Positions 25,927 to 30,563 of a stretch of 64,000 bases of DNA are shown here, one piece after another; position 1 is the stretch's first letter, and each line of letters begins with the position of its first letter. The notes beneath the pieces were generated by a model that had not been told where the DNA came from, made no database searches, and worked only from the letters and a program-made list of their open reading frames with translations. The translations under genes were made by a program, and so were the position numbers. Location: positions 5,184,001 to 5,248,000 of the forward strand of contig CM000153.2 of the NCBI GenBank assembly GCA_000004695.1, in the 5' to 3' direction. The stretch is from Dictyostelium discoideum. Its lineage: Eukaryota.

Positions 25927-28900
25927 TTATAAAGTAAAAGATGGATTTGAAATACAATCTACAACTAAAATAGGTGGATAATTTTCATCTTTGATTATTA
26001 AATTTTGAGGAGGTGGTGAAGAAATACCAATAAATTTAATAGTTTTACCAATAAGATTATTTAATTGATTTTCATAATCTTGAGCATTTTCATATCCGAA
26101 TGGAAATGTAAAAATATTTTTACAATTATTACTTCCGATCTAAAAAAAAAAAAAAAAAAAAAAAAATTGAATTAGTAAATCTATTTTTAGAAAATAAATA
26201 ATTTTAAATATATATATATATATGTAAATATAATTTACCTTTAAATATATTATAGAATTTGTTAAATTTGATTCAGTATCAATTAATTGAATTATTAAAT
26301 TTAATTCAATTAAAATTGTACTTTCAACAATTGATCTACATTTTGTACAAAAGAAATGTTCATCTTCATCTAAACCATCAATATTTGAGAGTAGATATTC
26401 ATTTGGAAATTGGATGACTGGAGTTTGACATTTATAACAACCACGATAAATAAATTCATTACTATTATTCTCAATGATTTTACCATTGAAACCAGATAAA
26501 AATTGATATTGATAATAGAGTTTAAATGGTGACTCATTTTGAACTTCCACATTTATTATTGGATCGAAATTAATTAAATGATTTTTTAAAATTTCACCAT
26601 CACCACCAATATTTTCATCTTGAATCTTTTCTTTTTGAAATATTTGAATTTGTTGTAAATTATTATTGTTATTATTACTATTGTTATTGTTATTGTTAAT
26701 ATTATTATTATTATCGATATTAGTTTTAATTTCATGATCAATCATTGAAAATTCATCAGCCAATAAAAGAGTTGTAAATTCAATATTTGGTAATTGAATT
26801 GTACAATGTTGAATTGTAATAAAATCACCAATATTTAATTTTCCAAAAAGGTGACTTTGATTTTCAATTTTAATACCAATACAATGTTGACGTTGTTGTT
26901 GTTGTTGTTCAAATGATTTTGAATCATCAATTAAGAATAATGTAAATTGTTGATCATTATTTCTTTTAATAAATGATATCATACCTTTAACAGAAAATCT
27001 TTGATAAAAATAAGTATCATTTTCAAAAGTTGGAATAGTTTCATTCAATATGGTAAATGCTTCTAAAACTGTACAAGGTATGATTGGTTTATAGGATTGA
27101 ATGAATAAATTATTTGGAGATGATTTAATAAAGAATTGACTCTCAGAAGAAACTCTAAATATACTAATATTGATTTGTTGTTGTTGTTGTTGTTTCTGTT
27201 GTTGTTGAAATTGATTTGGTATATAATGATTTAAAAAAGAACCAAAATTACTTGACCTACTCTTATTCTTATTACCAATGAAAAGAAGATTTGTGAAAAG
27301 AACCTCTTTGAATATGTTTTCTCTCTCTAAAATTAGTTTCCATTCTTCATAGTATTTCAATGGTACTTGAATCTCTGCAACTGATCCATTTAAATTTGCA
27401 ACATAAATTGAAATACAATTTGTTTTTTCTAATTGACTCTTATAAAAACATTGAAATAAAATAACATGTATATTTATATGTACAGAGTTTTGGGTTATAT
27501 TCTCTAATTCTAAAATTTCACTATTCTCAATAACATTTAAAATTTGATCATCTGTTTTATTGGTTGATAATAAAGAATTATTTGTTGTGGATAAAAACTG
27601 ATCACTTTTTTGTTTTTGAATTGACTTTAATAAATCTACTTGTGGATTTGATATTTGAATAGTTTCAAAGCTATCAATAACTTGATCAATATTATCAGTT
27701 GTAGAAGTTGAATTGGTGGTAGTAGTAGTAGAGGTTGTACCACTTTTATCTAAATGAGATATATGAGAGAAAATAATATTTGTATCATCGTATTGAATAT
27801 TTTGCCAATATTCTACAACTACTTGACTGCCAATTGTTAATTTTAACTCTGTTTTTGCTAACATTTGAAAAACAACTGTAATTATTTTAGTTTTACCTTG
27901 ATCTGGATTAATAATATATTGATTATTTGAATCTATACCAATACTATTATCTAAATTATTATTATTATTATTATCATTTAAAATTAAGAATTGATTTGGA
28001 TCTAACCAATTTGAACATTTACAAATTGTAACATAAACATGAGGTTGAAGTAATGAGGGTATTTGAATGATTGTAACATTTAGATCACGTTTATAATGTG
28101 AAGGTACACCAGAAGGTACTAATAATCTTGTTTGAACTAAATTATTCTTTCTTGAAACCAATTCATAGTTATGTTTTTGTTTACTTAATACCTTTACCAA
28201 TTTTTCAGCTAAACCACCTCTTTCAAATTTAAAATTAATTTTCAATTGTTTCATTGGTGTTGTTTGATTACCTACACCATTATTTGAATTACTGCCACCA
28301 CTACCACCACTACTACCACTACTACTTCCTCCTCCTCCACTACTACCACTAGTTTTTATAATTGAATCAGATAATTCACCCAACCATTTATTCTTTGATT
28401 TTGAATTTGTTTGGAATTGACCATCCTTTCCTGTAAATGTACTTGTATTTGATGATTGTATGTTATTTTGATCATTAGCATCATTAAAAATTAAATCATT
28501 ATTATCAGTATCACCATATCTATTATTATCATTATCATCATCGTCAACCATTATATCATCCATAATTTTTCTTGGTAATTTAAATATATTATTATTTACA
28601 CTATTTGGTTTTTTAAATAGTTGTTCATCTGAACTAGTTTGTAAATTGGTAATAGTATTGGTATCTTCAATATCATCCTCTTCATTAACATATATATATC
28701 TTTTTGAATTTGGTGATCTCTTTATTCTATCTTTAAATGATGGTGGAGGTGGTGAAAGTGATTGTTCTTCTTGTTCTTCTTGTTCTTGTCTTTGTTGTTG
28801 TTGTTGTTGTTGTTGACTATTATTACCATTGTCCTCAATATCCTCAACACTATCACTTCTAAAAACATCAGTTGTATCAATTGGTACCATTTTTTTAATA

Positions 28901-28943
28901 TTAAAATTATTAAAATTATTATTATTATTATTATTATTTTTAC

Positions 28944-28986
<43 letters not shown>

Positions 28987-29040
28987 TGCAACAGAATCCA
29001 AAACATCTTCAATTGGTTCTTCATTTTGGTTTCCGCCCAT
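25927..29040 (-). CDS. large low-complexity (N/Q/S-rich) protein with a C-terminal CxxC...CxxC zinc ribbon and OB-fold-like tail; C-terminal part of a gene split by an assembly gap
   Basis: ORF 26140..29040 (966 aa). Its last 30 residues are intron read-through: the true donor is TTAAAG|GTAAAT at ~26239, and a terminal exon 26139..25927 follows (IGSNNCKNIFTFPFGYENAQDYENQLNNLIGKTIKFIGISSPPPQNLIIKDENYPPILVVDCISNPSFTL*). Just before the splice is a zinc ribbon, YRGCYKCQTPV...(28 aa)...FFCTKCRS. Non-repetitive blocks between N/Q runs suggest folded domains. Confidence 0.6.
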
Positions 29041-30563
29041 TATATTGTTATCATCTTCATTAAATTGATTGTTTNNNNNNNNNNNNNNNNNNNNNNNNNN
29101 NNNNNNNNNNNNNNNNNNNNNNNNNNNNNNNNNNNNNNNNNNNNNNNNNNNNNNNNNNNNNNNNNNNNNNNNNNATTGTTGTTGTTGTTGTTCGAGTAAT
29201 ATTGAGAAGAATCTCTCAACATTGCACCAAAGTGCTTTTTATCTTCTTTAAAACTATCTGATCTCTTTGAAAAATTAAATACATTATCATTATATGGGTT
29301 TGATTGATTATTTACAATTAATATTTGTTTTTCTTTTTGTTTGTTTGTTTGATTTTGTTTATTCTGTGCTGGCTTCTGATGATTATCTATTATAATAGGA
29401 CTATCAATGGTATTGACATCATTATTTTTGTTATTATTTAAGTAATATCTATTTGCATCTTGAGTTGGTGTTAATGAAATACTAGATTGGGTCGGGTTTA
29501 TATAATCATCATAACTACTACTAATATAATTATTATTTTTATTATAGCCATTATCATTATTATTACTATAATTATTGGTTTGCATAATACCAATTGGTCT
29601 TTTGTTATTTTGTTGCTGTTGACTATGTTGTTGCTGTTGACTATGTTGTTGCTGTTGATTATTTCGTTGTTGTTGTTGAATGGATCTATTAAAATTGTTG
29701 ATATTATTATTTGATTCATTGAATATATCATCATCTTCGAATACTAAACCTTTAGCTTGAGGAAAAGCTTTCTTTGGGGTATCTAAATAATAATAGGTCA
29801 GTATTGAGGAAACAAAAGTTTTAAAAAAAAAAAAAAAAAACCTACATTTTGATTTTATTGGAGACTGATTGCTGTTTAAAGATTGTTTAAATGGTGAGGT
29901 TAATTTTGATTTAAAATCTTGAAATGTTGCACCACTACCACCATTAAAACTACTAGAAGAATGATTATCATTCAATATATTTTGATTAAATTGTTGTTTT
30001 TCATATTGATCCCATTGAAATGAATCGATATCTTTTTTATTATAATCAGTTTTTAAAGGTGATTTAAATATATTACTACCTCCTCCTCCTACAATATGTT
30101 TAGGTTGTTGGGGTGATTGTTGTTGTTGTAGTGGTTGTAGTGGTTGTAGTGGTTGTATTGGTTGTATTGGTTTTGGTTTTATTTTTGACCAATAATTATC
30201 ATTAAAACTACTACTAGTTGTATTGTTATCACCAATTTGATTATCAGATTCAATTGATTCATCAGAGGTATTGACATTTCCTCCTCTCATTTCATCATCT
30301 TCACCATTTTTAAAATTTTCAAATGAATTATTATTATTTATTTTATTTTTATTGATATATGATAAATTACTTATTTTTATTTTTTGGTTATTATTATTAC
30401 TATTATTATTATTATTGCTTTTATTGTTTTTATTAACAGATTGTTGTTGTGAATCACTTATTTCATAATCTAAATCTCTATAATTTGCATCAAAGTTTGG
30501 TAAATCAAAGTCTTGATTTTGATTATTATTATTAAAATATTTCTTTTTATCACTGTTCATCAT
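29040..30563 (-). CDS. N-terminal N/Q-rich portion of the same large gene, or a separate gene; frame link lost in the 100-N gap 29075-29174
   Basis: ORF 29040..30563 (507 aa, MMNSDKKKYFNNNNQNQDFDLPNF..., PIQPLQ repeats, polyN/Q). It abuts the downstream 966-aa ORF across the N gap, so the true frame relationship cannot be determined from this assembly. Confidence 0.45.
   Translation of the reverse strand: MMNSDKKKYFNNNNQNQDFDLPNFDANYRDLDYEISDSQQQSVNKNNKSNNNNNSNNNNQKIKISNLSYINKNKINNNNSFENFKNGEDDEMRGGNVNTSDESIESDNQIGDNNTTSSSFNDNYWSKIKPKPIQPIQPLQPLQPLQQQQSPQQPKHIVGGGGSNIFKSPLKTDYNKKDIDSFQWDQYEKQQFNQNILNDNHSSSSFNGGSGATFQDFKSKLTSPFKQSLNSNQSPIKSKCRFFFFFFKTFVSSILTYYYLDTPKKAFPQAKGLVFEDDDIFNESNNNINNFNRSIQQQQRNNQQQQHSQQQQHSQQQQNNKRPIGIMQTNNYSNNNDNGYNKNNNYISSSYDDYINPTQSSISLTPTQDANRYYLNNNKNNDVNTIDSPIIIDNHQKPAQNKQNQTNKQKEKQILIVNNQSNPYNDNVFNFSKRSDSFKEDKKHFGAMLRDSSQYYSNNNNNNXXXXXXXXXXXXXXXXXXXXXXXXXXXXXXXXXXTINLMKMITI
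29075..29174. other. assembly gap (100 N) inside the large low-complexity gene
   Basis: A run of 100 N followed by a (TTG)n/(CAA)n tract. It separates the 507-aa and 966-aa minus-strand ORFs. Confidence 0.95.

Follow-up and report, generated by a model that had tools for sequence, protein, structure and literature searches.

An unannotated Dictyostelium gene for a divergent SPIDR/RPA70-like OB-fold protein with a zinc ribbon

The subject of this study is one gene in a 64,000-nucleotide stretch of Dictyostelium discoideum AX4 chromosome 4 (GenBank assembly GCA_000004695.1, contig CM000153.2, positions 5,184,001 to 5,248,000 of the forward strand), which is referred to below as the window. The interval 25927-30563 of the window, read on the minus strand, is a single gene of three exons that runs from an ATG at 30561-30563 to a TAA at 25927-25929, comprises at least 1,457 codons plus the content of an assembly gap, and is colinear with six dictyostelid orthologues. 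A first-pass annotation, made from the letters and a list of open reading frames (ORFs), had described it as coding for a giant low-complexity protein, split by the gap, with a C-terminal zinc ribbon and an OB-like tail. The gene almost certainly encodes one RPA70-like protein with several OB folds and a zinc ribbon, and the product fits best as a divergent dictyostelid member, not annotated before now, of the SPIDR/RPA70-like OB-fold group.

Gene structure across the assembly gap

Gene structure and conservation were computed directly. The window has a GC content of 15-30%, and of about 20-25% near the gene, with many poly-Asn/Gln coding tracts. The 966-residue ORF named in the first-pass annotation lies on the minus strand at 26140..29040, as do all features of the gene described here, and a 966-codon ORF in DNA of 22% GC is far above chance expectation. 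Exon 1 (29846..30563; 239 codons plus 1 base) encodes the N-terminal part of a long disordered region. Intron 1 (29783..29845) is 63 nucleotides long, reads GTAGGT...TTTAG, and has its GT at 29845 and its AG at 29783. The splice of exon 1 to exon 2 gives ...SKYTPKKAF..., in agreement with SYTPKA of the Polysphondylium violaceum orthologue, whereas the unspliced sequence gives the nonsense CRFFFFFFK... and a frame shift relative to the conserved downstream frame. The second predicted ORF, of 507 residues (29040..30563), does exist, but it runs through the Ns and holds the 63-nucleotide intron and an out-of-frame tail; the true coding part 5' of the gap is 442 residues.

Exon 2 is divided by the gap into a 5' part (29175..29782), which terminates in an (AAC)n AAT poly-Asn tract, and a 3' part (26239..29074), which encodes the remaining disordered region, OB1 to OB3 and the first half of OB4 including the zinc ribbon. 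Intron 2 (26140..26238) is 99 nucleotides long, reads GTAAAT...TTTTAG, and has its GT at 26238 and its AG at 26140; when it is removed, the junction IIYLK|IGSNNCKNIF aligns with IVILKIDSNYCRNIL of an orthologue. The small terminal exon that had been predicted is therefore real. This exon 3 (25927..26139) has 70 codons and the stop TAA, codes for the part of OB4 from the end of strand 3 through the helix to strands 4-5, and its translation is colinear with the C-termini of the orthologues. The product is 442 residues 5' of the gap plus 1,015, or 1,457 residues, with the gap content extra.

The gap itself, 100 N at 29075..29174, stands where it had been reported. Its 5' flank closes with (AAC)5AAT, so it lies inside a poly-Asn tract of the disordered region, and its length of 100 N is a placeholder. 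The first-pass annotation had held that the gap breaks the frame link between the two ORFs and that any database model would be fragmented or chimeric. The gap does split the gene, but on either flank no break in the reading frame occurs before the Ns, and database models of any kind for D. discoideum were absent: no D. discoideum protein for this gene was found in the word-indexed search (5.8 billion proteins) or the exhaustive HMMER search (1.84 billion cluster representatives), and the spliced model had no entry in a collection of 15 billion protein sequences. So far as the searched databases show, the gene is apparently without an AX4 protein model, and the split by the gap appears to be the reason for its absence from the AX4 protein set.

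The word-indexed search found one relative, Dictyostelium purpureum DICPUDRAFT_33662 (P0001; 946 residues), at 100% query coverage. This protein is 38-42% identical to the D. discoideum gene, is colinear with it through to the end of exon 3, and has at its N-terminus DFELPNYDEKYKDLDYE, which matches the DFDLPNY motif DFDLPNFDANYRDLDYE of the 5' ORF. HMMER found six proteins only, all dictyostelid and all labelled as hypothetical proteins, from D. purpureum, P. violaceum, Tieghemostelium lacteum, Heterostelium album, Cavenderia fasciculata and one dictyostelid in EukProt. A metagenome scan gave no further relatives. Overall identity among the seven dictyostelid species is 29-48%. The orthologues of P. 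violaceum, T. lacteum, C. fasciculata and the EukProt dictyostelid are full-length (1,339-1,500 residues), and each carries, in one chain and in the D. discoideum order, the pre-gap YPFxKRSDSFxEDKxYFGxLLRD followed by the post-gap SPPPPxFKDxxxRSPNSKRYxY, KWLGELSDS and RGGLxEKL.... Since motifs from both sides of the gap occur in a single polypeptide, the 507-residue and 966-residue ORFs belong to one gene, as the first-pass annotation had supposed. At the position of the gap the orthologues have only low-complexity sequence.

An alternative is that two separate genes, or a pseudogene in decay, are linked in this interval only through an assembly artefact at the gap. The 100 N do break formal frame continuity, and the lack of a D. 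discoideum protein model would also fit. However, at least four other species hold the motifs of both sides in the same order in one protein, the frame stays open on either side as far as the Ns, which lie in a poly-Asn tract, and two canonical introns are the sole interruptions of the frame. This alternative is therefore very improbable, and a single gene is retained.

Over at least the first 715 residues the composition is 21% Asn, 11% Ser and 10% Gln, and this N/S/Q-rich region is predicted to be intrinsically disordered. The acidic/aromatic N-terminal motif DFDLPNFDANYRDLDYE (30462..30512), which is kept in D. purpureum, P. violaceum and the orthologue P0004, ties the 5' ORF to orthologues that bear the C-terminal OB array. 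Just 5' of the gap stands FNFSKRSDSFKEDKKHFGAMLRD (29211..29279), which is found mid-protein in the full-length orthologues P0003, P0004, P0005 and P0007 and so again indicates that one gene spans the gap; on the other side SPPPPSFKDRIKRSPNSKRYIYVNEE (28678..28755) is also conserved in orthologues. In total, seven short motifs conserved in Dictyostelia were seen on the minus strand (30462-30512, 29994-30023, 29886-29924, 29457-29477, 29211-29279, 28678-28755 and 28357-28392), with examples such as DFDLPNFDxxYRDL, SFxWxxYE, FxxFKxKLxSPxK, TPTQD, KRSDSFxEDKxxFGxxLRD, SPPPPxFKDxxxRSPNSKRYxY and KWLGELSDS. None of the seven matched any known motif, and they are candidate partner-binding sites.

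The orthologue models in the databases show damage that recurs at particular places. The P0004 model departs into ...IDHRYHWNMD exactly at the position of D. discoideum intron 2, which is probably read-through of a conserved intron. The H. album model PPL_10406 is without the entire N-terminal half, and the D. purpureum model DICPUDRAFT_33662 is without about 500 residues of the disordered region that carry motifs 2-5.

OB folds and the embedded zinc ribbon

The folds and zinc ligands were likewise computed directly. The approximately 740 structured residues open with an amphipathic RGGLAEKL helix and a single OB fold; beyond a linker, three more OB folds stand in an RPA70-like tandem. The structured region of the D. 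purpureum orthologue (688 residues) was modelled with AlphaFold2 (AF2) from an alignment of eight rows that included the D. discoideum exons. The model had a mean predicted local distance difference test score (pLDDT) of 55 and a predicted template-modelling score (pTM) of 0.57, with structured blocks at pLDDT 60-85. Structure prediction had been suggested in the first-pass annotation as the way to look for an OB fold, and the model shows four OB barrels. In order, the model comprises a short RGGL helix, OB1 (55-135), a disordered or helical linker, OB2 (227-336), two helices, OB3 (377-464), another linker and OB4 (527-681). When the model was mapped onto the D. discoideum gene, the helix RGGLAEKLVKVLSKQKHNYELVSRK was placed at 28147..28221, where the structured region starts, OB1, which carries a poly-Asn insertion, at 27760..28086 (through alignment with orthologue residues 55-135), OB2 at 27121..27471, OB3 at 26731..27000, and OB4 with its embedded zinc ribbon at 25954..26595, interrupted by intron 2.

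OB4 is predicted to be a five-stranded OB beta-barrel of the RPA70 DBD-C type. The zinc ribbon (26338..26439) has the pattern C-x2-C-x26-C-x2-C, with CYKC at 26428-26439 and CTKC at 26338-26349. The first-pass annotation had named the strings GCYKCQTPV and FFCTKCRS and the paired C-x2-C pattern, all of which are present, but the two strings are 20 residues apart, and not 28. All seven dictyostelid species keep the four Cys unchanged, together with the YRG that precedes them and the F ahead of the third Cys, and the predicted zinc ligands were modelled as two beta-hairpin knuckles at pLDDT 73-88. The ribbon and the OB module had been thought to lie side by side. Both are present, but in the model the ribbon is inserted within the OB fold, between strands 1 and 2 of OB4, and the terminal exon is the second half of that same fold: exon 3 supplies the end of strand 3, the helix, strand 4 (TIKFIGISSP) and strand 5 (ILVVDCIS). 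The C-terminus follows 8-12 residues past strand 5 (...VVDCISNPSFTL*) in every orthologue with an intact C-terminus, and the protein is therefore without a C-terminal trimerisation helix of the kind found in RPA70, Teb1 and CTC1.

A Foldseek search with the model returned RPA70 A-B-C arrays (9pd4_N at 4e-12 and 4gop_C at 2e-11) and RADX (1e-9). The top structural matches are the Teb1 AB/OB-C domains and RPA70. The likeness to RPA70, which is shared with archaeal RPA1 and Tetrahymena Teb1, lies in the OB topology, in the ribbon between strands 1 and 2 of the last OB, and in a tandem A-B-C-like array with a further OB N-terminal to it. The differences are that the first knuckle is CxxC in the dictyostelid protein and Cx4C in RPA70, and that the dictyostelid protein is without the C-terminal trimerisation helix and has at least 715 residues of N-terminal disorder. 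By sequence, the structured region of D. discoideum had no Pfam matches even at E up to 10, and searches of the PDB with the protein and with the family profile returned only low-complexity or PHD-finger noise. The best match of the family to Rep_fac-A_C (PF08646) was E=0.1 (12.8 bits against a cutoff of 28.5), in H. album only, and the model found nothing in the D. discoideum sequence, whereas canonical RPA70 is recognised strongly by the same Pfam models; membership of RPA70 by sequence was rejected.

The first-pass annotation had offered a structural hunch of an RPA70 DBD-C or CTC1-type protein that binds single-stranded DNA (ssDNA). RPA70-like OB folds with a zinc ribbon are indeed predicted, but there are four of them, and SPIDR is a likelier relative than RPA70 or CTC1. 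That the gene is the D. discoideum orthologue of CTC1, the large subunit of CST, is scarcely credible. CTC1 scores below both RPA70 and Teb1, it has seven OB folds, no long disordered region and an assembly with STN1-TEN1, whereas this protein has four OB folds and huge disorder and is without a C-terminal helix for STN1/TEN1-type assembly. No Pfam CTC1 match was found in the family, and the published CTC1-like candidate of D. discoideum is another protein, Q54WQ3 (PMC10499019). HROB was also considered and rejected, with no Pfam DUF4539 match and with a published D. discoideum homologue, DDB_G0282151, that is a different gene (PMC6771392). Q54WQ3 and DDB_G0282151 are catalogued proteins, and no D. 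discoideum database protein matches the gene described here, so both belong to other loci.

Relationship to SPIDR and to other RPA70-like proteins

SPIDR (KIAA0146, DNA repair-scaffolding protein) has two Pfam domains, DUF4502, which is N-terminal, and DUF4503 (PMC12738175). Human SPIDR is disordered at its N-terminus and has a central OB, described as inferred, and three OBs towards its C-terminus, the last of which bears a zinc ribbon; RPA1 is its top Foldseek match, and it binds ssDNA through the zinc-ribbon OB, with binding reduced or lost in C817A/C820A (PMC11377751). Its N-terminus (residues 1-515) binds RAD51 and SWS1-SWSAP1 (PMC6821187). Taken together, human SPIDR binds ssDNA, RAD51, BLM and SWS1-SWSAP1 and promotes homologous recombination (PMC11377751, PMC6821187, PMC11339404). 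The PDB holds no SPIDR chain, and the literature searched has no report that links SPIDR to Dictyostelium.

The data presented here make it moderately probable that the gene is the dictyostelid orthologue of SPIDR. Both proteins have a long disordered N-terminal region, then a basic stretch and an RGGLAE(R/K)L-x2-L-x-N-(R/K)-E-(R/K) helix directly before the first OB-like domain, then a linker and three tandem RPA70-like OBs with a CxxC...CxxC zinc ribbon in the last, and RPA1/RPA70 is the best structural match of both. In D. discoideum the four predicted OBs follow at least 715 disordered residues. The helix LLRGGLAERL...N-R-E-R before the first OB is invariant in mammalian SPIDR; it reads LLRGGLAERLNGLQNRERSAISLWRHQ in human SPIDR, and its counterparts are RGGLAEKLVKVLSKQK in D. 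discoideum and RGGLSERLAKLLNKEK in T. lacteum, which hhalign and HMMER align to SPIDR residues 259 onward. Some differences should be noted. Sequence identity is only about 14-15%, the dictyostelid disordered region is 2-3 times longer, Asn/Gln-rich and furnished with short motifs of its own, the zinc-ribbon loop is x19-x26 as against x16 in human, and the dictyostelid chain stops about 10 residues past strand 5 whereas human SPIDR continues for about 25 more.

When all members of the family were scanned against the 24,736 Pfam families with no prior choice among them, the sole match in a structured region at E<0.01 was DUF4502, in T. lacteum (E=0.0026 on the globular region and 7.7e-5 on the trimmed domain). 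The alignment covers the RGGL helix and OB1 and reaches profile positions 260-359 of 376. A human SPIDR sequence scored 605 and 662 bits with DUF4502 and DUF4503, and as a query it brought back genuine SPIDR proteins, with a human isoform at 100% identity. The SPIDR profile was built from 22 mammalian SPIDRs. When the dictyostelid family was compared with this profile by hhalign, the full-length alignment gave 527 colinear columns (probability 63.5%, P=6.8e-5) and the structured region gave 552 colinear columns (probability 43%, P=2.4e-4). The pairing starts with KKKLLRGGLAERLNGLQNRERSAISLW against FKFERGGLAEKLVKVLSKQKHNYELV, runs through all OB folds, and ends at the zinc ribbon with FSWPVCDMCG...FSCGDCSRVVTSPVL against FIYRGCYKCQ...FFCTKCRSIVESTIL. 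In four orthologues, each taken independently, a hidden Markov model of mammalian SPIDR matched the RGGL helix or the zinc ribbon at its cognate position. As controls, reversed alignments scored 20-22 and 12-column block shuffles 31.7-37.6, against 44.8 for the real pair, and the shuffles nearly always re-found the RGGL block. When the motif was deleted, what remained still scored 35.4 across 313 colinear columns, whereas shuffles scored 20.2 +/- 1.8 and at most 25.1.

However, a number of observations weigh against an assignment to SPIDR. The DUF4502 match reached 22.7 bits against a cutoff of 27, so that the gathering threshold was unmet, and it was seen in one of the seven members; DUF4503, the OB region of SPIDR, matched none of the seven in the Pfam scan. 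The SPIDR profile holds mammals only, and hhalign probabilities of 43-64% are below the usual thresholds of certainty. The RGGL helix alone, a stretch of 8-25 residues, supplies about 32 of the 44.8 score units, and OB1 without the motif scored 14.0 against SPIDR, where shuffles gave 13.5 +/- 2.2. When the zinc-ribbon OB was compared with single human sequences, it scored 24.9 with SPIDR, 27.9 with RPA70 and 28.2 with SHLD2. Confidence in the AF2 models is medium (mean pLDDT 55 and 68); they were made from eight-row alignments, and the protein modelled was the D. purpureum orthologue and not that of D. discoideum. From the control scores and the near-equal scores with SPIDR, RPA70 and SHLD2 it follows that the C-terminal similarity is largely generic to RPA70-like OBs. 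What points to SPIDR in particular is the extended RGGL helix, with the place it occupies, and the architecture as a whole.

These observations bear on a second explanation, in which the gene is an RPA70-like paralogue specific to dictyostelids and not orthologous to SPIDR, with an RGGL similarity that is convergent or due to chance. One possible role of such a paralogue would be that of a factor binding ssDNA ends or telomere/rDNA (ribosomal DNA) ends, as with Tetrahymena Teb1 or CTC1-type proteins. It would account for a family found in Dictyostelia only among the 1.84 billion representatives, for the rank of Teb1 AB/OB-C and RPA70 as top structural matches, for an OB region that in single-sequence comparison is no nearer to SPIDR than to RPA70 or SHLD2, and for a SPIDR-specific signal that comes mostly from one short helix. 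It accounts less well for the helix itself, since a near-identical 8-mer with about 25 similar residues at the same architectural position has a chance of about 1e-3 to 1e-4, in keeping with the hhalign P values, or for the emergence of DUF4502 from 24,736 Pfam families without prior selection. In addition, the trimerisation helix used by RPA70, Teb1 and CTC1 is missing, and long N-terminal disorder is foreign to Teb1 and RPA70. This explanation is considered unlikely. The broader proposal that the family is a new, Dictyostelia-restricted, non-SPIDR branch of RPA70-like ssDNA-binding proteins, whose function could be lineage-specific, is somewhat unlikely; its members could then act in the protection or processing of the unusual rDNA-derived chromosome ends of Dictyostelium, or as a resection regulator like shieldin or RADX.

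A third group of candidates has functions opposed to those of SPIDR, as SHLD2 and RADX act in DNA-end protection or RAD51 antagonism and not in RAD51 promotion. These proteins have the same general layout, a disordered region and then OBs, the C-terminal one with a zinc ribbon. Structural alignments with RADX are long, and the first knuckle of the dictyostelid ribbon, Y-x-G-C-x-x-C, resembles the YTGCAKC of SHLD2. Whether shieldin-type end protection occurs in Dictyostelium "remains to be tested" according to a 2021 review (PMC8529158). However, the Pfam models SHLD2_OB1, OB_SHLD2_2nd and SHLD2_C score 146-266 bits on human SHLD2 and none on the dictyostelid proteins, and hhalign to SHLD2 covers only 18 columns, at the zinc knuckle. 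SHLD2 is described with three OB folds and without an RGGL helix or a fourth OB (PMC11377751), whereas the dictyostelid protein has four and the helix. Membership of SHLD2 was rejected by sequence, as no Pfam SHLD2 model matched in the family, and an orthologue or functional counterpart of SHLD2 or RADX is improbable. Orthology to SPIDR remains the preferred reading.

Neighbouring genes, proposed role and significance

The neighbours of the gene in the window are ordinary housekeeping genes that offer no functional clue (Med9, a HAD hydrolase, a CBS protein, an NADPH oxidase, an Arp, LplA, TraB and a GH65 enzyme). The one for Mediator subunit 9 (Med9; 25121-25808, plus strand, two exons, Pfam Med9 E=3e-5), is convergent with the gene described here; its stop lies about 118 bp from the other stop, and the two 3' ends have a very short AT-rich spacer in common. 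The C-terminus of Med9 has tandem SQTEP/SQIES pentapeptide repeats (approximately 25640-25760). The NADPH oxidase/ferric-reductase gene (32605-34826, minus strand) carries Ferric_reduct, FAD_binding_8 and NAD_binding_6 and is split by an intron into at least two ORFs. The ORF at 7304..8557 is identical to the D. discoideum AX4 protein DDB_G0287003. Two others had no Pfam match, one of 561 residues at 35424-37109 (minus strand), whose exact sequence is absent from the protein collection, and one of 224 residues at 47862-48536 (plus strand). An uninterrupted ORF of 3,444 residues lies at 53440-63774 (minus strand); it has very long poly-Gln and poly-Asn tracts and, as judged by reading its translation, resembles part of a VPS13-family protein.

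For the protein itself, the analogy with RPA70 and SPIDR leads us to infer that it binds ssDNA, what its partners are and that it takes part in homologous recombination. OB2 to OB4 would bind ssDNA at resected breaks or stalled forks, and the zinc ribbon would stabilise OB4. The disordered region, the RGGL helix and OB1, which would correspond to the N-terminal half of SPIDR (residues 1-515), would recruit recombination partners. An OB array that binds ssDNA, together with an N-terminal half that recruits partners, leads to the proposal that the protein would tether RAD51-regulating factors to ssDNA and, as a scaffold, would promote homologous recombination that depends on RAD51.

D. discoideum is an established model for the choice of DNA-repair pathway and keeps several repair factors that have no yeast counterparts. 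A SPIDR-like, RPA70-type ssDNA-binding scaffold in this organism is unreported in the literature searched. Conservation of the Shu complex across eukaryotes has been reported (PMC11339404). Current concepts are unchanged by the finding. Recognition of the gene would add a missing gene model. If the gene is the orthologue of SPIDR, this would suggest that the SPIDR architecture of disorder, RGGL helix, four OBs and zinc ribbon predates the split between Amoebozoa and animals, and it would mark the RGGLAE(R/K)L helix as the most conserved element of SPIDR. It would also offer a genetically tractable haploid system in which to study how SPIDR and the Shu complex support RAD51.

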